NCBI GenBank assembly: GCA_051362555.1
Contig: CM120640.1
Location: 70,472,788 to 70,536,787 of the forward strand
Direction of reading: 5' to 3'
DNA length: 64,000 nt
Source of the DNA: Lingula anatina
Lineage: Eukaryota > Animalia > Brachiopoda
The position numbers were made by a program, and so were the translations under genes. Position 1 is the first letter of the stretch, and each line of letters begins with the position of its first letter. The notes beneath the pieces were generated by a model. It saw nothing but the letters and a program-made list of their open reading frames with translations, searched no databases and was not told the origin of the DNA. Positions 761 through 57,301 of this stretch are shown here, piece after piece.

Positions 761-3700
761 ATGGCGACTGTAAATGCTAATAATTTTGAGGTGCCCACTT
801 GGTAAGCAAATGTTTTCAACCGAGAGGAATAGAGCAATTGATTTAATAGTGCACTATGTTACACTCAGTCATTCCCATTCCGGATTGGAATTATATGCGT
901 TTTTATTAATACAACTCCTAATTTTCAATCTTATTATAATATTAAAAATGACCAAAAAATCAACAGCACAATGCCACAAACAGTGAAACTGTACATTCTT
1001 TCTTTCTCCGATCAGAGCAAATGTTATTAAATATGAAAAAATGTTTAATGTTTTACAGGGCTGGGAAACCCCCTCCTGGACTTCATTTAGATGTCCTCAA
1101 AGAGGGCAAAATGATTCAGGTAAGTGTAGTCAACCATGTCTAAGTTTGCATTCAGTGGATGTGGCTGGTTGCAGTAAGGTATGCCTACCCTCTACCAGGG
1201 TGGCAGATATTATAGGGAAAATGACCAAAAGCCAGAGATATGAAAATGACTGTCTATTTATCTTAAGACATATACCCCTGCAAACATACTTCACTGTTAC
1301 ACAGGGTAACAAATAGTATCCAGCTTTTACTAGTTTATCATGAGAACTGATTTACCATTTATAGGTTGCTCAAACACACCATGCTCATTAGTACCACCAG
1401 CGTGTACGCTGGCGGTACTCATGGTTTTAGTCTCGACCCGTCTCGTACGGCTCCGTAAGCTCCGCCGGCTCCATTGGCTCCGCAGGGTGTCGTGGGATAC
1501 AAGTCACCGTTACCGCTTCTCCTCCTAGACCGCAAGGACCTGTGTCCCCCTCTCTTGGATTTAGGTCACATATAATCTCAACTTGAACCCCCTTGTATTT
1601 TTGTCTCAGTCGGTGCTTTGGCCTGGGCGTGACGCTCGTTGAAACGCACCCTTGTCAAAATTTTGGAAAATTCAATGCTAAATATTTCCCAAACCGAAGG
1701 AATTATCGGAAAAATTACTACAAAAGTCTGACTGAAAGTCATATGTGGAGATTCCAAATATGCCCTGAGATTTGACTTTTGACCTTTATTTCAAGGTCAA
1801 ACGGGCCAAAGTTTTCTAAAAATGGGACTTTTCTGCAAAAAAAATATTTGTTTGTACCAATTTTCAGAAACTACACAGACCTAAGCTCTCATATTATGGT
1901 GAGGGGTTACAATCAGGGACTCCTTTCATCTTTGAGAGTTTGGGGTCAATAGGTGCATTTTCATGGGAGAAGAGGCCATTAGATATGAAACTGAAAACTT
2001 TCTCAAATTCTGGAACCGTAAATGCCAGAGACCTTTTGAATTTTGCAATTTGTAGGACTTGTCAAGCACAATACTGGAGGTGGTGTCCACGTTTTTGTTT
2101 TCGATACGGTTTAGGCGTTGCGCTGTATAAAAAAGTACAACGCAATATTCAGTGGTGAAAATAAAATGTGAATTACTCCAAAATTAGCAGAGATATGCTC
2201 ATAGTTCCTATTGAACTTGAACAGGAAGTCGTATACTGGCAATCTAACTGTGACCTTGAAATTGACCTTTGACCTACTTTTTATTCTGAACTGCACTTTG
2301 CAAATTTTCTGATCTTCATATCTCCAAAACTGGCAAAGATACGACCAGTTACTATTGAACTTGATTAGGAAGTCATATACTTGCAATCTAACTGTGACCC
2401 TGAAATTGACCTTTGACCTAATTTTCACCATTAACTGAACTTTGCAAATTTTCTATCCTTTATATCTCGAAAACTGGCAGAGATACACCCGAAGTTACTG
2501 TTGAACTTGAATAGGAAGTCATATAGTGGCAATCTAACTATGACCTTGAAATTGAGCTTTGACCTACTTTTTATGATGAACTGCACCTTGCATGTTTTCT
2601 GGAATTTATATCTCCAAAATTTGCAAAGAAACTCCCATGGTTACTATTTAACTTGAATAGGAAGTCATATACTGTGACCTTGAAATTGACCTTTGACCTA
2701 CTTTTTCACCAAGAACTGAACTTTGCAAATTTTCTATCCTTTATATCTTGAAAACTGGCAGAGATACACCCAAAGTTACTGTTGAACTTGAATAGGAAGT
2801 CATATACTGGCAATCTAACTATGACCTTGAAATTGAGCTTTGACCTACTTTTTATGATGACCTGCACCTTGCATGTTTTCTGGCATTTATATCTTCAAAA
2901 TTGGCAAAGAAATTCCCATGGTTACTATTGAACTTGAATAGGAAGTCATATACTGTGACCTTAAAATTGACCTTTGACCTACTTTTTCACCAAGAACTGA
3001 ACTTTGCATATTTTCTTGCCCCTCATATCTTCAAAACTAGCAGAGATATGCCCATAGTGTTGCCCAAGGTTTACTCTTTTATCAGCATACTACAGATGCA
3101 ACAATGATAACACATTTCAAGGAAAACCAATAGGTCTATTATGGAGCGCCATTCACGCAAAAAATGCAGACGTCAATTCAACAATCTATCGGCACTATTT
3201 AACAGCCAAAACCTACTTTAACTATCTAAACTTAATTCTACTAAATTAGTTGTGGTCATTTTTTCATCATCAAAATCTAACAATCAATAATAACGATTCA
3301 AAAGTCAGTTACTGCAACTCAACAATCAGTCACCGCAAATCAACAATCAGTTACTGCAACTCAACAATCAGTCACCGCAACTCAACAATCAGTCACCGCA
3401 ACTCAACAATGTATCAATGTATTTTTGCGTGAATGGCGTGAAAGCATGGTGCGCCATTCACGCAAAAAATACAGACGTCAAATCAACAATCTACCGGCAC
3501 TATTTAACCAAAACCTACTTTAACTATCTAAACTTAATTCTACTAAATAAGTTGTGGTCATTTTAATCATTCGTCAAAATCTAACAGTCAATAAACGATT
3601 CAAAAGTCAGTTACCGCAACTCAACAATGCATTTTTTGCGTGAATGGCGCGAATGCATGGTGCGCCATTCACGCAAAAAATGCAGACGTCAACTCAACAA

Positions 3701-6700
3701 TCAGTTGCCGTAACTCAACAATCAGTTGTCGCAAACGGTCATTCGCGGACTTAACACCAGATGGCGCGTGCGCACCGTCAGCGATCTGAAACGTCCTTGA
3801 CCTTTTCCATGTTTTCAATTCCGCATATTATGGGAGTACATGTGGTTCATCGTGTTCGTATTGTCATGATATAGTTAAGTATATAATAGTAGGATTGCGT
3901 TCAATCACATCATACTGAAATTAGATATGGCAATGAACCACATGTAGTTCCTACTCGAATAATATGCGGAATAGCACAGGTCTCAAACTACTGCGCATGC
4001 GCGAAAAGTACGCTGTTTGAAATAAACAAATACATTTATTTTCTCTTCACAAATAGGGTAATTCCTTTCGCATTTATAGTGTTATATGTGGCACCAAGGG
4101 GATTTTCCACCCCTCCCCCACTCTTGATTAATAAAATTATCCATCGGGAGGAATGAAAATTATATTGCAAAATACATTAAAAATTGCAGATAATGCTGTG
4201 AGGATATTCTAGGGAGTCATGCCGATACTCCCCCGTACTTATACTCCCCCGCACCGATACTTCTCCTTAGTAAATTTTTGCATTATGCACGTCAATACGA
4301 CCTCACACCGATAGATCCCCGCATCAATAAATCCCCTCTAGAATTGCCGTTAGGCCTATACGCGCACCGTTACTCCCCCGCAACGATACTCCCCGCATTA
4401 TTACTCCTCCTATGCAATTTCCACGAAACTGAGGGTCTGGGTAACGGAGAGTCATCCATCCATTTAATTATAGGCTACAGGTTAGGGTCAATCGACGTAA
4501 GTGGGTCAAAATCTAGGGCGGGGCTGAATTACCTATATGCAAATTGATGGGAACCGGACTGTCTATCATGGGAGAGTCTGTCACCTTGCATCGATTTTTT
4601 TCACATATAGATTTGAAAAATTGGTCAACGACTCGGAAGCACGGCCTACATTGTATAAGAAATACTTTTTTCAAATGGAAAAACGCTTTGGATATTGGTG
4701 AGATAAGTGAAAAAAAATGGCCACAGGGAGATCCTTGGTGATGTTGTTTTTATGCTATTGCGCAGTGCATACAAATCTTAATTGCTTACAATTGAGCATC
4801 GGTATTATACAAAAGAAGCCGCAAAGTTCCTAAAAAATCTTGGGCGACAACACATTAGTCTCGGTCACAACCGGCCGCACGGGCTCTTACGACCCGTTTG
4901 AGTCCAAATTTTGCGGAGAATCTCACGTGCCACGCAAGTCCTTTATGCGAAATTTCGAGTTCGCACGTATGTAAGCACGTACGGAGGATACTAAACATTT
5001 CCAATAGATTCTACAAATAATCTTTGTTACGCTTTATTCTACAAATAATCTCAAGTTACGCTTGCGGCCTCGCTGTTTAAATAATCTTTAAACAGCGAGG
5101 CCGCAAGCGTAACTTGCTCCCTTCGCAAGGAGTTTGCGAGGAGTTTGCAAGTGAGACTTGCGTGGTCCAAGATGCACGTCGCAAGCAATGAAAGAGAAAG
5201 TGCCCTTTGCGTGTTGAGTACGGCGCACGCCCTCACATCTATGACGAAGTAAGTCGAAAACACGGCAGGACTGCGAGAATAAAAGGTGTGCTCACGACGC
5301 ATGCTCGTGTCTCTACAATTTCGTTGTCCAACAATTTTCAAAAATTTTGAATTTTGCTCAGTTCAGATTCTAATATGCCTCCAAAAGACAAGGGAAAGAA
5401 GTTTAAGAGCAGAAAAGAACGTTGGAGAAAGATAACAGAAAACGAAGCGCTTTAGCACTGCTTTTTTATTATTTAATAATTAAACAAAATCATCGTTGCC
5501 TGAGGAAAAGACATAGCTGCGTCATCTTAGATTAAAACTAACTTTGCCTTAAGTAAATAAATAAAAGGGCGTATAATATAAATACGGTAACTACAGTAGG
5601 AGAACAATATTAATTTTGCACAAACATTTCTCAAATTTACAAGGCATAGCTGTAGGCCTACGGACTGTTAAGCTGCACGCAAAGTCTGAGATCGACTTCG
5701 AGTAAAGCCCTTTATTTTCCCCAATATATTTCGAATAAAATGTGTCAATTATGTGTCCCAAGAGGGTTGTGCAACTTTGAAAAAAATAGCATAATAGAAA
5801 GGGTTTTGAAGCACGATTTGTGTCTACAAAGCCCAGGGAATCTTTGCTTTGGGGAATAGTGTTTTTGCGGAGTATTGGTACGCGGGAGTATCAGTGGGGG
5901 GGTGGGGAGGGGGGGGTTTCGATGCGGGGATGTAAAGAAGCGGGGGAGTATCGGTGCGGGGGAGTATTGGTGCGGTGATGTAAAGAAGCGCGGGAGTATC
6001 GGATGCGGGGACGTATAGGCATTCTAGTCGGTGGCGAACTCGGCCAATATAAAAATTTTAACTTCGTCTTACGATTTTGGAGCGCCTGTTCTAATTTTTG
6101 AAAGCGAGGCAATGGAACCAAACGATACGAATCTCATAAAAATTGATATTTTTTAATAGAGGTTATAGCCGGGCGTACATCAAAAGGCGACTCGTTTATT
6201 ATTGTGATATGTAATAATAATTAATATAAAAGATACGATATAATAGGTTCTTGTCGAATAGCTTTATTGATTTTTTTAAGTATTTGGAGATTAAAAACAC
6301 AATTTAAGCTGAATGGTTTCAAATCGAGGCACCACGTATTTTAATACTGTTAAAACGATGGAAAAGGTCAAGGACGTTTCAGATCGCTGACGGTGCGCGC
6401 GCCATCTGGTGTTAAGTCCGCGAATGACCGTTTGCAGTAACTGATTGTTGAGTTGCTGTAACTGATTGTTGAGTTGCGATAACTGATTGTTGAGTTGCGG
6501 TGACTGATTGTTGAGTTGCGGTAATTGACTTTTGAATCGTTTATTGATTGTTAGATTTTGACGAATGATTAAAATGACCAAAACTAATTTAGTAGAATTA
6601 AGTTTAGATAGTTAAAGTAGGTTTTGGTTGTTAAATAGTGCCGATAGATTGTTGAATTGACTTCTGCATTTTTTGCGTGAATGGCGTTATATAGTCTATT

Positions 6701-26570: not shown

Positions 26571-26646
26571 CATAGCCACGCACATACGCAATTTTTCTGT
26601 CAGGACGAATTGAGACCATCAAGTTTTATCCACTGAAAGCGTTAAA

Positions 26647-29600
26647 ATGCCGTTTTTAGGAAAAGACTGGAGATCTCCAGGAGAACAGTGGGTACGAACA
26701 GACAAAGGATGGGAAAGAATGAGAATGTGGAGGCTGAAATTGCTTGAAAATCTAAACGAAAATGTCGTTGCGAGGTAGGGGCCCTTTGTTTTTCAGTACA
26801 CACATCTTTTTCTCTTGTAACAGAGTTTGGTCATATGATTTGCTGCTTCGTATTTTTCTTAAAATCCTGTAACATATGGCAGGAGCAGTGGCGCCTAACT
26901 TTTAATTGGAGGGAGAGCCTGGAAACGGGAACTGAAAGTCGATTTTTTCACAAGGTAAATCTCTGATTGTGAACCTGTGGTAGGTTTATTTCTTGTATCT
27001 CTGTGACTGTGACAGTGTTGAAGCTAATTCACCAGTACTGCACCGGGCACTCCTGCCAACGTGTTTTTACGTTATTTGAAGAAAGATCTAAAAACTATGG
27101 GATTACTTTTACTGTTGGTATCTCAGTGTATTTTGGTACAGAGAAAATGGAATGTTGCCATTTAGATAGATAAATAAATAAATTAAACATATTGTATTGA
27201 TTGGTTGGGGTAGACCTAGGTGCGATAGCTTAGTGACAGAGCACTCACATGGTAAGTAAGCCAGTGCTCAGGTACAAACCCGGTCGAGTTAGGTGTTTTC
27301 CCCAAAAAGATTTCAATATAACATGATATTTTGTATCTCTGTACATTTAGACATGACACTAAATTCAGCAACATCTAGCATCTCACATGACTTATTTTCT
27401 GAGCACGTGTTAAGTGTAAAAGTGTTGATATATGCAACTTGTATTTAAACTGATGTCAGGAACACAAGTTTTTCAGTGAATGTGTGGATACGGTTTTGTG
27501 ATGTGAGATCAATAATGTCTCATGTGGTCTAGATTTAGAAAAGTGACATTTCACAAGTCTGCATTGTACAAACATGGTAAAGGCCAAGTTTTGCTCTTGC
27601 AGGCTTGCTGTCTTGCAATGTCAGCATTGTTGCAAAAGGGGAAACCACAGGAAGATAAAAAAAAATATTGTATTATCTAAATATGTCAAATGTTATGGAT
27701 AACAGTCAAAATGCCAGGACACCTGCAGCTAAAATCTTACTTATATTTTTGCTGATTCTTACATTATTTGTAGAAAAGTGGATGAATGGTATATGATATA
27801 TGTTTTTCATGTACTGAGTTATCAGATAGATCTCCACACTAGAAGGTTCCAAACTGGGTCAGTCCACAAAAAAGTGAAGTAACATTAACATGTAAATCAC
27901 ATAAAAATAACTCCATGTGTCTTATTTCTATTAATGACTCAAATGCACTTGAGTGAAACAGTAACACATGGAATTGCAACTTCTGTTTTCAAGTCCCTGA
28001 ATTCTGTTTTCAGAATCATCAAGCTTGCATTGGAAGACATGGAATCCAGGCACAGTGCATTGGTGACACACAGTCAGCCCCACATTTATGTGGCTAAAAC
28101 TGTGTCCAGAGAGGTGAGTCTTAGGCTTGATGTGGCTAAAACTGTGTCCAGAGAGGTGAGTCTTAGACTTGATGTGGCTAAAACTGTGTCCAGAGAGGTG
28201 AGTCTTAGACTTGATGTGGCTAAAACTGTGTCCAGAGAGGTGAGTCTTAGGCTTGATGTGGCTAAAACTGTGTCCAGAGAGGTGAGTCTTAGGCTTGATG
28301 TGGCTAAAACTGTGTCCAGAGAGGTGAGTCTTAGGCTTGATGTGGCTAAAACTGTGTCCAGAGAGGTGAGTCTTAGGCTTGATGTGGCTAAAACTGTGTC
28401 CAGAGAGGTGAGTCTTAGACTTGATGTGGCTAGAAATGTAACAAAATTATGTGACACCTTTTGTCGGGAGTCGTGTATCTGACAGTTGGTACATGGATTG
28501 TTATTTTTAGAAGAAATTATGGTTTATTTGCTCATAAAATATGACTAGATGTCTGGATGGAGCTTTCTACTAATAAATTCAAGAGATTGACTAGATCCCC
28601 AATGTGTTTATAATGAAATTTAATTTAATTTATTTATTTTATTGTTCAAAATTAAGCTTATAGTGAGAAGAAAATATGATTTCCAAAGTAAGCAAAAACT
28701 GTGTCTTTGTTGGCATAAAACAACTTTACTCTTTTGAATCATCACATTTAAAGACAGTTCATGTCAGTTTTGTCTAGTTTTCACTTTGTCAGTGCCAGGT
28801 GCAGAAGCTATGAATCTTTTATTTTACTCATCTTAGGATGCATTCACACTAGTTTTAATTTTAAAAAATTGACTTACATTCAAGTATCAGATCCCCGCCC
28901 CACCCTGCTCTGTGACCTTGCTAACACCTGAGTGTGCTGATCAATGAACTCACGGATTGGGGGTGGTGGTGGTGGGGGGGGGGGGGGGGGGGAAGGTTAG
29001 GATCTCCCTGTAGAAATTAAGACTAAATCCCTGTTGGTTTAAAACCAGTCTCAACTAGGGTTTGCTGCACTGCAGTAACACAAAGGCACAGTGCCAATAA
29101 GTTAGGGAATATAAACCTTAGCAATTCATTACCTGGTACAAAGGAACTCGAGTATCAGGAGTTAAGTCAACTAAGTTATATTATAAACATGCCTCTCTAC
29201 CTGACTGTACTCAGTGTATGGGCCAGTTTCCAGGATAATTTAGACACAGGAATCAGGGATTGTGGTGGTTACTACTAATGTTACAAACAAGAAAAACATA
29301 ATATTAGTTAGAAAATACACAGTTTTTTTTATTTTAGTCAAGTCCTCATTAATTTAGTTTTCAGTGTTGTGTCCACATCTTATATGACATAATATGTCCC
29401 TGACTGCGGCACCTGTAGCCAGGGTATATAGATAACATATTGAATAACCAACCTGTCACTTCCTGGATGGCATTCTTAGAGAATAAACTAGTTCAGTACT
29501 TCCAAACTGCGTAGATGATTTGGCAGGACAAGAATGCCTTTGTCTTGTGTCTTGGCGTGTTGCCACATTCCCAGGTATACAGTTGTGATGTATCTAAATG

Positions 29601-31474
29601 AGCAGCAGTATCCTTAAAAACCAGCTGTTTCTTGTATCTTCTTTTCACTTTATTTTATTTAGTTTTTTGACACTTTATTTTTTCGATGTAATTTATTGAG
29701 GTAGATCTAGAGAGATCCTTCAGGCTGCTGAAGGATCAGACTTAATAGCAAATGATGCATTGGTTAAGTATACATGTACCTTTAAGTTGATAGCCACCTG
29801 AGAAGATTCTGCAGTCATCACTACAAATATTTCTTAGTGTTCATACAATTTGGATTTAGGATTTAGTAAGGCAATAAAAAAAGGGTAAACATCCCTCAGA
29901 ATCTTGGAAATGCTACTTGTCCAGTAATGGTCTTAATTGGCTGAAGTAACACTGTGTATTGGCCTAAATGTTTATTGTGAGGAGAAGTAGCAGGTTTTAG
30001 CTGACTCATTCCTGGTGAACAGGTATCCCTGTAGATCTCTACAGTAGTCTACAGGTGGAGGTAGTCTGGATTACCCTTTGCTTACTGACTAATTGAGCTG
30101 ACTTACATATCATTATAGATGACTTGAAATAAGGGACCAACAACAAATGCTGTCTAAATTATTATTATTTTTGTAATAATTATTTTTTATTCCTTTTTAG
30201 CATCAGATGCAGATTTCATTAGGTGATGTCCTGACCAAACTTGACTTTGCTGGTGCAGCCAAAAATATCCGTAGATTTAACTATGTTTGCAAGGTAAAAA
30301 GAATGCTACCTGTCTGTTATATATATATATATATATAATTTTATTATACATAAACTCAATAATTGGAATTCGTGGAAACAGAATAAAAAACTTATTTGTT
30401 ACAGTAACTTTAAAATACTTTCAAAAATGCAAAGCAGTGTGGGTAATAACTTTACATGAAGCTTATAAATATTTCAAATAAATTAGAATGTAACATACTT
30501 CCAGAAGTTGAAATATTTGAATGTTGTAACAATTTACTCACACAAGATGTCAACTATTTCTTCACAGCTCTTGGATGTTTTGATCAATGAAAAGTTGCAG
30601 TATCTTGGAGGACAAGCCCAGAAACAGGTCTTCAGCATTCTGGAAGCAGCAACAAACTATGGTCAGTTACATGTGCTTCTTTGATTTCTACTAACAGCCA
30701 GAAATTTTAATGGGGGGTACTTTTTCTGAAAGAACGGACCTTTTGTACCCTCTTAGTTGGCCCTACTTGCTTCAGAACAGAGCTTTCCTGGCCAAAAAGC
30801 AGATATTTTCTCAACATATTCCATGTGGGAGTTTAAATTTTTGACTTTTAGCGGATCATAAGTTTAAAATATATTTAAAGAGTGCATATAGATGACCTAA
30901 AGAAAAACATTATTGCCCCATTTTTGTTGTAGTGGTGACAGCAAAGACTAATACTCAGCTGCTTAAACAACTCCTGGTGAGCGCCCGCCAGGTTCTCATT
31001 GCCGAGGAAAGATACCACTTGGGAAGTCCAACTCTGTGGCAGAATCACATGGAGACAGTTAACAGGGCGAAGAGTCAACTGGCAACTGTGTTAGAACCTG
31101 TACATGTAAGGCAGTTGTACAGTTTTTATTGTTATAATATTAATGCTGAAATTTTACGAGACCAAATGTAAAGCTTTTTTTTTCTTGGAAATAAATATGA
31201 GAGTATGTTTGCTTCAACTCATTGAATATTTTTTTTTTAAAAAGAGAATTTTGTCTTTAGAAATGAATTCTTATTCTACTGAGAATAGGCAGCAGACATT
31301 TCATCATCATCATCATTTAGAGCCTATAGTGTTCCACTGTTGGACAAAGGCCTCAGCATGCTTTTTCCATTGTTTCCTATCCAGAGCTTCAGATTTCCAG
31401 TTTGGCCAAGGTTTCTTCTTCCAAGACTTCCAGTAGTCATCTAATTCATCCTTCCATCAGACATTTAGTGCAAG

Positions 31475-31512
<38 letters not shown>

Positions 31513-32828
31513 GGGGGGGGGCAGAGGGGTATAACAGTATATGTTGTCTTTAAGTTATTGAAATATTTTGTTTAAAAAATGACAATATTGTTTCCTATTC
31601 ACTTGAGAACAGACAGCGGATATTTTGTTTCAGGAGGCAGAAGAAGGCAGCAGAACCCTGGCAGATCTTCCCAATGAGTGTCTGTGGAAGATCCTGGGCA
31701 TGTTGTCAGATCACCTAGACATTGTTAGCACAGGACTGACCAAGAAGAGATTGTACGAGATATCTGCCGAGGAGCTGTTGTGGAGAGAGCTGTGTCTGTA
31801 CCACTTCACTTATGACCAGGTCAACAACCTGCTGGTCAGTGGCCAGAGGAGGAACAACCTGGACTGGAACTGGAAGAAACTGTACCTCAGGCTGGTCAAG
31901 TGAGATTGATACCTACATAGATATATTATTATTATATTATAATTACATTAATTATTCCAGAAATGTTATCATAGACTGCTGTGCATTTTACACATTGAGC
32001 ACAGCATTTTATGGCCATGATAATTTATTTTATGGTTTTGAACATTTTTGTGTTCAAGTTGAAGGATGCACCAACAAAAGGATTTTAAATGTTTTGGCCA
32101 TTGCCCAAAGGCAGTACAGGATAATTGACTTATGACCTTTTATCAAATAGGCTCTTCACTTTCACCTGTGTGTGTTTGAACTTGAAATATGAGGTGTTAT
32201 TGATGAGAACCAAACAGCTTTTTTACCACCTTTTCTACAGTATATTCTGACAGCACAGCAGGTTACAAACACTTAGAAATGAAGTTCCTGTCCAATTTTT
32301 CATCTTCACAATAATTTATCATCTGTAAAGCTGCTGTTATGGCTCTCAGCACTCAAGTCACAGCTGTTGAATGGACCACAGGCAACAGGTTCACGCATGT
32401 ATTTATCATTTCAGACGGCACGGCAAAAAGGAAGTTTATGCAGACATGTTACACCTGTGCGACAACTGCAACTGCGTTTTCTGGAAGGTAAGCAGTTAAA
32501 AAATTTCAAGGAAATGTATTTGTTTTGACCTTTGGAAAAAACTTTTAAAATCTTCCAATATACCTTGATATGTACCTTTTATGATATGACAACTCAGGTT
32601 GGTAATTTATTAAGATAATCTCAAGGATTCACTCTCTTCGCATATTTTCCTTCAAAATGTTTCACTAGTATGTAGTTGACACATTTCCCCTGATTTTACC
32701 CAATCAATTTTTGACAAAATACTGTCGTCTGCTTTCAGGGTCTTGGCCATCCATGTTTATCAAAAGATGGCTGCCACTCGTCTACTGAAGTCTCGCCACA
32801 TAAATTCCTGCAGATTTTTAACCCTTAG
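26647..32828 (+). CDS. FBXO32: F-box only protein 25/32 (atrogin-1/MAFbx family), 8 coding exons
   Basis: Exons 26647-26774 ([24 protein letters not shown]), 28014-28113, 30201-30293 ([18 protein letters not shown]), 30568-30661, 30933-31105, 31634-31899 (F-box [14 protein letters not shown]...[11 protein letters not shown]), 32415-32487 ([17 protein letters not shown]), 32739-32828 (GHPC...[10 protein letters not shown]). All phase-compatible. Probably co-orthologous to vertebrate FBXO25 and FBXO32. Confidence 0.95.
27221..27292 (+). mobile_element. Degenerate tRNA-derived SINE head
   Basis: A-box-like tagcttagtg and B-box-like ggtacaaaccc at tRNA-like spacing; no clean cloverleaf. Confidence 0.35.
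28088..28432 (+). repeat. 42-bp minisatellite x8 spanning the F-box exon 2 / intron 2 junction
   Basis: Unit atgtggctaaaactgtgtccagagag|gtgagtcttagRcttg. GT donors at 28114, 28156, 28198, 28240, 28282, 28324, 28366 and 28408. Confidence 0.97.
31302..31457 (-). mobile_element. 5'-truncated RTE-clade LINE fragment with TSD
   Basis: Minus strand reads [47 protein letters not shown] followed by a (TGA)n tail, the typical RTE ORF end. 9-bp TSD cagacattt at 31293-31301 and 31458-31466. Confidence 0.85.
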
Positions 32829-35599: not shown

Positions 35600-35788
35600 A
35601 CCCTGTGCCACACTGAGCTTACAACCACCCCCTGAGGTATCCTGAGTAACCTACCACACCCTGGGTATCCAAACCTTACCTCTGTGCCACAATGGGCTAA
35701 CAACCACCCCCCGAGGTATCCTGAGTAACCTACCACACCCTGGTAAAAAATCTTACCCCTGTGCCACACAGGGTTTGCAACCACACCA
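35600..35788. repeat. ~79-bp tandem repeat (about 2.4 copies) between the convergent 3' ends of the F-box gene and TRIT1
   Basis: ctgtgccaca at ~35603, ~35682 and ~35759; gaggtatcctgagtaacctaccacaccctgg occurs twice. Confidence 0.85.
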
Positions 35789-43200: not shown

Positions 43201-46200
43201 AGTAACAATATAAGTTATTCAACCCACATACTTATCTCCAAGGACAAGAATCTAAAGCTTAGATCACTTCCCAGTGAGGCTGCCAGCCAAGAGGGTCAAC
43301 GACTTTTCAATAGGTGATTATTCAACACAGCAAGCACAGAGAAGGGGGTGCAGCGGTTTAGTGATAGAGGATAATATGTGTGGGTGATTGGGGTGGGATT
43401 AAATAATAATTAAAATAATTAAAATATCAATAAACTTTTAAAGTTTGCTTTGAATCACAGCAATTTAAATATTGCAGCAATAAATAGTTTCATTTTCTTG
43501 ACCCAGGAAGTATACCTTCTTTCAAAAGTGTTTCTCCCATTTGACTTTGTCGTTCTTGTTCAGGCAGGATCAAATAGTTATGAAATTCTTTGAATCCAAT
43601 ACTTTGAAAGATGCCATGTGTGTAGTCTGCTTCCCTGAAAAACAAAAAGTAAACTAGCAAACAAACCACTCTTTTATGTTTATAGTTTATTTTTTCATGG
43701 TTTATTTCTTTCAATAAAAAAGAATTCTTTGCAGTTCTCTAACATAAAAAAATTGCACCCAACCTGGCCTGTGGGTAGGCAAGTTATACAACATGTAATT
43801 AGGAGCTTATAGCAATGGATTACTTGCATAACAACTTTAGATGTTAGAACCTGTGGGCTTAAGGAACTGAACTTGGGAGTGAACAAACTAGGTACACAGA
43901 CTATAGCCACCTTCAAATTGTCTACAAAGAAAACAAGCATGATGCATGCTAAAGCAGACTAATCCCTGCCTGACCCGGGTGATTGATAAAATTCTTATCA
44001 GAGACCCTATACAGTACCCAGAGAGATCAAAAGAGAATACTTCACCCTAACCAAAATAAAGCCCAATATTCTCACTTGTGGCTAATAATAATATTGACTT
44101 ACAATCACAAGGTAATGTAGGGTTGCCACAGGCTCAACAACTCAGTTTGTACAAATATTGGAAAATGAAGTTGCACTTGGTGGAATTTCAGAACATGAGC
44201 AAGGATAGAGAGCCAGACGGACTACGAGATGTTAATCAAAATATCAATGACTGGACATCATATACACTGTATGATGCAAACGCTCAGCAAGGAGGCAGCG
44301 TTGCAACTTGTGCTAACTGTCAAATTACAGCACCTGCTGGGAAGGTTTAAAAAACATATTTGAAATATTTGAAGCATTCAAAACTCCTCAGGGAAAACCT
44401 CCCAATTTAATTTTCACTTTCTTTCCTTTTCCTTTTTTTTTTTAATTTGTGTTTCAACATGATCGCATTTTTACTTTCACTACTTTAACATACACACAAT
44501 ACACCCCCATAATATCACAAAAAAATAATAAAAAATTGCCCCACTTCCTTATTGCAACTTTCAATTTATCCTATAGTATAATCCTTCTTGTTGCTTCCTT
44601 CATATTTACTTCTGTGTCCAAAATCCAGATAAGTTTCCCTTTCACTACCAGAATTGCATAAATATGTTTCTACTTAAAGTTTATTTTCACTCAGTGCTCC
44701 AAATATTCATAACTTTTGAATCAGAAAAATCATATTGTGTTGACTTCTTATAATATGTCTAGAAAATCAATACTGTAACCTAAAGTATTCAAGTTGCAAA
44801 AATTAAGAATTAAGCAGAAAAGACTCAGAATATCAGTCTATGTGTGATCTTACTTGTGTTCCTCCAATCTCTGCTGGTTGTAGCGGCTGTGAAAGTCCAA
44901 CAGTTCCGCCACCAACCCCCTCTCTAACATGGAGTCCACACGCTTGTCAAGACGCTCATCAAGCACTGTAAAGACATAATATTACACTTTATCTAATACT
45001 GCAGAACTCTTACCGAGGAGAACCTTATCATTATTATTATTATTATTATTCTGCCATAGAGTCATATCTGATGTTGTTTTAACCACACAGTAATATGAGA
45101 GCTACATATGGTCCGTCTTCTGACACTGTACCCAGAATATAACCCACCTGTCTGCTGACACTGCACCTAGAATATAACCCACCTGTCTGCTGACACTGCA
45201 CTTAAAATATAACCCACCTGTCTGCTGACACTGCACCTAGAATATAACCCACCTGTCTGCTGACACTGCACCTAGAATATAACCCACCTGTCTGCTGACA
45301 CTGCGCCCAGAATATAACCCACCTGTCTGCTGACACTGTACCCAGAATATAACCCACCTGTCTGCTGACACTGTACCCAGAATATAACCCAAATGTCTGC
45401 TGACACTGTACCCAGAATATAACCCACCTGTCTGCTGACATTGAACCCAGAAGATACAGTTGTGCTGATATCTCAGAGGGCCACTAACATCCTCGTCCTC
45501 TTGATGCTGTTCTGCCAAGATCTCACTCATGGTCACACCATACTGGAAATGCACCTCCAGACCTCTACAGAATAAGGGGGGATATATCTAAACTAAAATG
45601 TGGTGACATTGGGCTTATTTACTTCGATTGTTCTAACTAGTCAACAGTACCCCCTTCCTGAAAATAAATTTAACTTATCTATGCTTTATATCAGAAACTA
45701 CATTCCTGCCATAAATGTTCTCATTCTATTTTTGTTTCATGTTACATTACTTAGTATATTTTCATATCTTAAATAGGACAACCCTTCAGTGGGTAGGAGG
45801 CTATGTATTTCTTGATATTTTGACTTCTTCTTTGCTAAGTGCAGTTACAATTTGCCTCCTAAATCCAGTTTTAGTTATGAGATTATTCAACAGGTGGCAG
45901 CACAAATAGGGCATTCTTATTATAATAACCCTGATTACACTATCATCAACTCAACAGACACCATCCATTAATCATCACTTTAAAACAATTGAAACTGAGC
46001 CTGATTATCAGTTACTGGGCCATCTCCAATAACATCAACAAAACAAAGTTTACAATGTTGATCAACTTGTCCAAAGAGATAATGTTTGGCAACACTAAGT
46101 CTGCTTTCAGGAAGACAAGGATATCTTTTGATAATTTAATGTTGACAAGGTGACTATTTCAATAAAACCCATCAAAGAAAAGTTCAAATTAAATTTCAAC

Positions 46201-56679: not shown

Positions 56680-57301
56680 GGGTGCGCTTCGCTATGCCGA
56701 AGGTTCGCTATGCCGAAGGTTCGCTGTGCCGAGGGTTCGCTATGCCGAAGGTTCGTTATGCCGAGGGTTCGCTGAGCCGAAGGTTCGCTATACCGAGGGT
56801 TCGCTATGCCGATTGTTTTTAAAAAGATGTTAATTTTACACACACCCAATAACTACAACAAGTTCGCCAAAAATAATTAGAGAATGTTTTCTTGTCAGTA
56901 ATTTCCTAAATGTGGGTGACGCCCATAGTGCCAAAAATAATTAATATATTAACTTACAGAACTGATTATTTAAAGCGATTTAAGATGTTTATGTCCATAA
57001 GGATAAACCTTCAATGCGCAGTTTTAACAAATCCAAATGGTACGGATGGAAGAAGAGAACTTTTAAAACTCGTTTATTTTCAAAAAAGGCCACTGCTCGC
57101 CACGTTACATAACAAGCACAATGGGTGATGGGTAGCCGACTTTTTCGGCGCAGCGAACCCTCGGCACAGCGAACCATCGGCATAGCGAACCTTTGATTTT
57201 GGGGCTCCGGAAAAACTTAGCCGATTTTAGACCAATTTTCCGGTTTTGTCGGCACAGTGAACCCTCGGCACAGCGAACCTTCGGCACAGCGCACTGTCCC
57301 C
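56680..57301. mobile_element. ~620-bp MITE with 17-bp subterminal tandem repeats and 8-bp TSD
   Basis: Left (ggttcgctatgccgaa/g)n, right inverted (tcggcacagcgaacc)n, GGG...CCC termini. Exact TSD ctcttatg at 56672-56679 and 57302-57309. Confidence 0.9.

Follow-up and report, generated by a model that had tools for sequence, protein, structure and literature searches.

Some minisatellites lie across an exon-intron boundary with their first monomer, and Borensztajn et al. 2006 (PMC1557585) define these as a kind of their own. According to this paper, F7 (37 bp), LMNB2 (100 bp), and PDGF (81 bp) splice from the authentic donor alone, and CBS and 6-16 employ two pseudo-sites in addition, those of 6-16 being the next two. 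The choice of the first site in F7 was tested there with 50 constructs. The 37-bp VNTR in intron 7 of human F7 combines a boundary-spanning first monomer with an identical donor repeated 5 to 9 times, of which the most upstream alone is used. The 31-bp VNTR in intron 13 of human CBS, c.1444_1467+7(16_21), comprises 24 exonic and 7 intronic nt, to judge from its name in PMC2630376. Human 6-16 (IFI6) intron 2, the 100-bp repeat of LMNB2, and the 81-bp repeat in PDGF intron 4 share this build (PMC1557585).

The array described here lies across the exon 2/intron 2 boundary of an FBXO25/32 gene of the brachiopod Lingula anatina, within the window, i.e., the whole 64-kb stretch of DNA that was analysed. 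It belongs to the F7/CBS/LMNB2 type, with which it shares four features, namely tandem units, a boundary-spanning position, intact donors, and a dominant first donor. The F7 unit has 4 exonic and 33 intronic nt and shifts the frame, whereas the Lingula unit has 26 and 16 nt, keeps the frame, and leaks at about 1%; copy-number alleles have been shown for F7, whereas unit sequence variants are known from reads for Lingula. The CBS repeat is nearest in build, since its unit is mostly exonic and repeats the donor and leak to later donors is known, but its 31-nt unit shifts the frame, it is present in 16 to 21 copies, and its population alleles have been typed. The 81-bp PDGF unit is, like the 42-nt unit of Lingula, a multiple of 3; 6-16, LMNB2, and PDGF differ from the Lingula array in longer units or more copies and are mammalian. 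Nothing on the Lingula array or on an invertebrate donor-spanning case was found in a literature search outside which most subscription journals lay, and the accessible portions of PMC10078293 and PMC12783039 hold nothing on donor-spanning units. Overall, the array is very probably a minisatellite whose first unit lies across the exon 2/intron 2 boundary, whose first donor is chosen in about 99 of 100 cases, and which probably arose near-neutrally, by slippage or unequal crossing-over. It adds one more case, from an invertebrate and with counted reads, in which the first among identical donors wins, and it extends the F7 rule beyond mammals.

With respect to the host gene, the model of eight exons spliced at the first donor (Table 1) encodes 338 residues, of which 336 are identical to L. 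anatina F-box only protein 25 (XP_013410633.1, the sole member of its cluster) and 2 differ. The protein contains an F-box-like domain (PF12937; 33.7 bits against a Pfam cut-off of 24.3) and has 106 homologues at an E value of 0.001 or better among 1693 candidates, with full-length homology that includes a conserved N-terminal motif in the alignment. This identity, the domain, and the homologues bear out the atrogin/FBXO25-32 label of the first-pass annotation, a model-made reading of the letters, and its placement of the exon 2 end is confirmed by RNA joints from 28113 to exon 3. An additional upstream exon ends at 27251 with the donor ATG|GTAAGT; RNA run X12, with 12 reads there, has none from exon 1. 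The terminal ATG of this exon opens a different reading frame that ends within exon 2, and the next in-frame ATG is located at 28039; a transcript of this kind would yield a protein that lacks the conserved N-terminal 51 residues.

Table 1. Features of the FBXO25/32 locus of L. anatina, in positions of the window.
Feature	Position	Strand	Basis
Exon 1, coding part	26647..26774	+	joint to exon 2 in 2/3 RNA runs
Other upstream exon, 3' end (donor 27252)	27239..27251	+	spliced to exon 2 in X12, 4 reads
Exon 2, 100 nt, last codon Glu76	28014..28113	+	RNA joints
Eight 42-nt units, exon 2/intron 2	28088..28423	+	tandem-repeat search, letter comparison
Authentic intron 2 5' splice site, GAG|GTGAGT, GT at 28114	28111..28119	+	~99% of junction reads
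Seven identical downstream pseudo-donors, GT at 28156, 28198, 28240, 28282, 28324, 28366, 28408	28153..28413	+	together ~1% of junction reads
Partial ninth unit, 9 nt exact, 14/16 nt match to unit 1	28424..28439	+	tandem-repeat search, shuffle test
Exon 3	30201..30293	+	RNA reads confirm both ends
Exon 4	30568..30661	+	start: RNA loose-end letters; rest: gene model
Exon 5	30933..31105	+	gene model matching annotated protein
Exon 6, encodes F-box (PF12937)	31634..31899	+	gene model, Pfam
Exon 7	32415..32487	+	gene model
Exon 8, coding part to stop	32739..32828	+	gene model

The units of the array match at 98% (TRF score 669). Each consists of 26 nt from the end of exon 2 and 16 nt from the beginning of intron 2 and carries the same donor; in this description, including its coordinates, the annotation was accurate. 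None of the unit's 12-mers occurs elsewhere within the 64-kb window. The array is followed by a partial ninth unit, which begins with ATGTGGCTA at 28424-28432 and whose resemblance to unit 1 was reached by 1 of 2000 shuffles; the annotation had stopped at the 9 nt, which are indeed exact, but the match extends further, to 28439. In the assembly, the array is open and stop-free in the exon 2 frame, as had been claimed, so that one unit corresponds to a 14-residue peptide repeat. Because two open frames run through the array on the opposite strand, too, the open frame is nothing special. A single site varies between the units of the assembly, in the order G A A G G G G A, and both resulting codons (AGG and AGA) encode arginine. 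The statement that variation between units is purely synonymous is correct for the assembly, but the reads tell otherwise. The exchange G>A at 28102 in unit 1 (Val73Met) was found in 53 of 57 reads of X15, 40 of 49 of X18, and 0 of 8 of X12, and residue 73 is Met in the annotated protein and Val in the window. A unit with a GTAAGT donor, absent from the assembly, was present in 4 reads of X17, perhaps from few molecules, and an in-frame stop in a unit (TCC>TAA) is weakly indicated by 2 reads of X16 with opposite mate direction, perhaps from one molecule.

Donor choice was read from six RNA runs among the nine listed raw-read runs of the same species (three studies; tissues and stages not given), 6-26% of each of which was read. 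The mapping targets were 26600-28190, with about 2.4 units (X12, X15, and X18), and 28366-30300, with about 1.6 units, one of them a full unit ahead of the last donor (four runs from two studies, X15 being used again). With the former, 6, 48, and 37 reads of X12, X15, and X18, respectively, joined 28113 to exon 3, and no loose end was listed in these runs at the second donor (end at 28155) at a listing threshold of 3 reads. With the latter, 45, 108, 14, and 22 reads of the four runs, i.e., 189 reads, joined the first donor to exon 3. The longest 5' side of the exon 3 joint measured 24+2 = 26 nt in every run, which equals the exonic part of one unit, and 46, 106, 14, and 24 reads (190) carried the unique exon 2 letters directly before that unit. 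The assignment to the first donor is confirmed by 28102 G>A, which distinguishes unit 1 from the inner ones; this marker was present in 47, 108, and 14 reads of X15, X16, and X17, in agreement with 45, 108, and 14 joint reads. Two reads of X16, perhaps mates of one molecule, pass a donor and the next unit before they join exon 3; to judge from the marker count, these reads may begin in an inner unit, i.e., use the third donor or a later one, and the second donor is also possible.

The first donor thus accounts for 189 of 191 junction reads and later donors for 2 (1.0%; 95% interval, 0.1 to 3.7%, which treats reads as independent, whereas mates are not), or for 2 of 234 if X12 and X18 are included with their 43 first-donor reads. 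Reads from later donors were confined to one of the six RNA runs, and an allele with one unit in the sequenced animals would dilute this estimate of the leak. The remaining array reads stand at 4- to 9-fold the mean intron 2 depth (counts of 2 to 8), as expected of unspliced RNA with several units piled on about 1.5. The annotation had proposed that donor choice yields isoforms with 0 to 7 extra repeats. The two reads uphold the possible use of a later donor, but no ladder of any size emerges from the data. Reads with extra units joined to exon 3, by which it was to be recognized, amount to 2 of 191, a result close to the exclusive use of the donor at 28114 that had been named as speaking against it; for a coding VNTR or ladder, the repeats would be expected in a sizeable share of the mature mRNA, and this share is likewise 2 of 191. 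A new intron inside the array (AG|GT and CTTAG in each unit) is not among the joints listed for the mapping targets, which hold part of the array, and its in-frame product would count among the same two reads.

As the donors are identical over 26 nt upstream and 16 nt downstream and are set apart solely by their position and by the sequence farther upstream, the choice between them presumably rests on position. The spliceosome would commit to the first strong donor behind the exon 2 acceptor, either by exon definition or in a 5'-to-3' manner in which the first site wins; the first donor delimits an exon of 100 nt, and the others delimit exons of 142 to 394 nt. The array provides a natural in-frame test case, in which the silence of the later donors cannot be put down to the decay of faulty transcripts. 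Decay as a process that hides a ladder is unexpected for the assembly allele, which is in frame and stop-free, and could act on a stop-bearing allele. Masking of later donors by RNA structure was rejected as well; the repeat folds no better than shuffled sequences (z 0.59), and all eight donors have similar, low unpaired probabilities.

A different mechanism, in which an element in the unit actively silences the later donors and position is not the sole cause, is improbable but deserves consideration; the array would still be non-adaptive. Each intronic 16-mer contains TAGG or TAGA, 26 to 35 nt upstream of every later donor and absent at the first, a motif that we take to resemble an hnRNP A1 site. 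Silencers between competing donors favor the upstream donor. In F7, however, deletion, addition, and mutation of monomers left the choice of the first site unchanged, according to PMC1557585. Silencing would alter the mechanism and not the verdict, and it can act together with first-site choice.

Far less probable is a regulated ladder, in which some tissue, stage, or stress turns on the later donors and FBXO25/32 acquires 1 to 7 extra 14-residue repeats with a function of their own. Under this reading, an unsampled state would raise the use of later donors, the range of repeat numbers would be set by the copy number of the allele, and the two reads of X16 that join extra units to exon 3 would represent the resting level; if true, an in-frame splice ladder would have been caught while arising, and it is only if the leak is regulated that the array would matter more. 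The unit's open frame in the assembly, those two reads, and the upstream-exon switching of FBXO25/32 between samples that is shown by X12 are in line with it. So is the structure model, in which the junction falls into a loop and a short helix with a middling mean pLDDT of 63 for residues 71 to 80; an insertion at this place need not be fatal, and a longer protein might still fold. A Foldseek search of the model against the PDB gave no match at an E value of 0.001 or better, and Pfam matches in the repeat read-through (RimP_N and others) were discarded as artefacts of the repeated peptide, with 0 to 1 passing stretches.

Against a regulated ladder stands, apart from the use of later donors at about 1% over six runs from three studies and the weakly indicated in-frame stop, the ease with which its supposed hallmarks arise. 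Of all possible units of 20 to 80 nt that span this donor, 742 of 2304 (32%) are in frame and stop-free, and the same count over the seven donors of the gene gives 2402 of 16128 (15%). Single changes in the unit are synonymous in 32 of 126 cases (transitions, 14 of 42), and one synonymous variable site is therefore expected by chance in about 1 in 4 to 1 in 3 cases. Since the in-frame, stop-free, and synonymous features all lie within chance, selection is not needed to explain the keeping of the frame. A control is provided by the same window, where an array of the same build with 35-nt units (25 exonic and 10 intronic nt) shifts the frame, which argues likewise that frame-keeping in the 42-nt array needs no selection. 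It is located 17 kb away in a tRNA dimethylallyltransferase gene (45113-45452, minus strand) and comprises eight intact CAG|GTGGGT donors (45427 and 45357 to 45147); in one further unit the donor is dead, and the last unit is decayed. In the annotated protein, P0107, the first donor is joined to the next exon. These findings are a warning that chance often gives rise to in-frame, stop-free, and synonymous-only donor arrays, which do not in themselves point to an isoform ladder.

The protein family also speaks against functional repeats. The FBXO25/FBXO32 (atrogin-1) family differs from the Lingula array in having neither a repeat nor an insertion at the exon 2/3 junction, as no insertion separates residues 76 and 77 in any of the 106 homologues and none of them contains the six residues with which the repeat peptide begins, and the annotated protein of 338 amino acids is the product of the first donor. 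Glu76 is invariant in 35 aligned sequences chosen from the 106 homologues and present in 90 of all 106. The segment from residue 76 to 91 has 16 residues in 104 of 104 scored homologues, compared with a range of 10 to 141 for the segment from 23 to 63; on the other hand, short insertions occur in the segment from 64 to 76 in 12 of 104. Judging from these alignments, the insertion point at the exon 2/3 junction does not appear to be where the family varies. The few transcripts that would result from the leak would carry additional 14-residue repeats within a segment that is conserved, and noise is a likelier explanation of them than function.

A near-neutral minisatellite would have originated when a 42-nt stretch was duplicated and then grew by slippage or unequal crossing-over, while a single substitution spread into three of the units. 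For the array end, the annotation had suggested slippage seeded by microhomology; such slippage, on a short repeat that was already there, is plausible, and a decayed ninth unit explains this end equally well.

Tandem copies were also recovered from other samples. In the mapping to 26600-28190, reads that loop back within the array, i.e., two units followed by the repeat start, were found in all three RNA runs (2, 4, and 2 reads in X12, X15, and X18) with at least 50 nt on both sides, and in the mapping to 28366-30300 they were found in three of four runs (X15, X16, and X17). In the DNA run X2, a contig with a depth of 286 covers the repeat alone (approximate limits 28088-28159, derived from binned depth), next to flanking contigs with depths of 106 to 138; the ratio of about 2 to 3 is no copy number, and no read spans the array. 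The sampled animals carry tandem copies and hence later donors, and because independent runs share them, the array is no assembly artefact. The notion of an artefact, which the annotation had itself named, or of an array private to the sequenced individual can practically be dismissed, as the rough X2 depth ratio, which hints at fewer units in X2, is opposed by two unit variants in non-random order, by the loop-back reads of X12, X15, X16, X17, and X18, and by the high-depth X2 contig, so that it is largely refuted as to the presence of tandem copies.

Minisatellites are frequent in the 64-kb window. A satellite-like array with periods of 135, 146, and 281 extends from 2176 to 3048, and arrays with units of 21 nt and 16 nt are found at 3298-3410, at 6432-6535 (the inverse of 3298-3410), and at 56688-57291. 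A 79-nt repeat of 2.2 copies on the minus strand (35601-35768) contains a donor-like G|GTAAG once more, behind a putative short exon.
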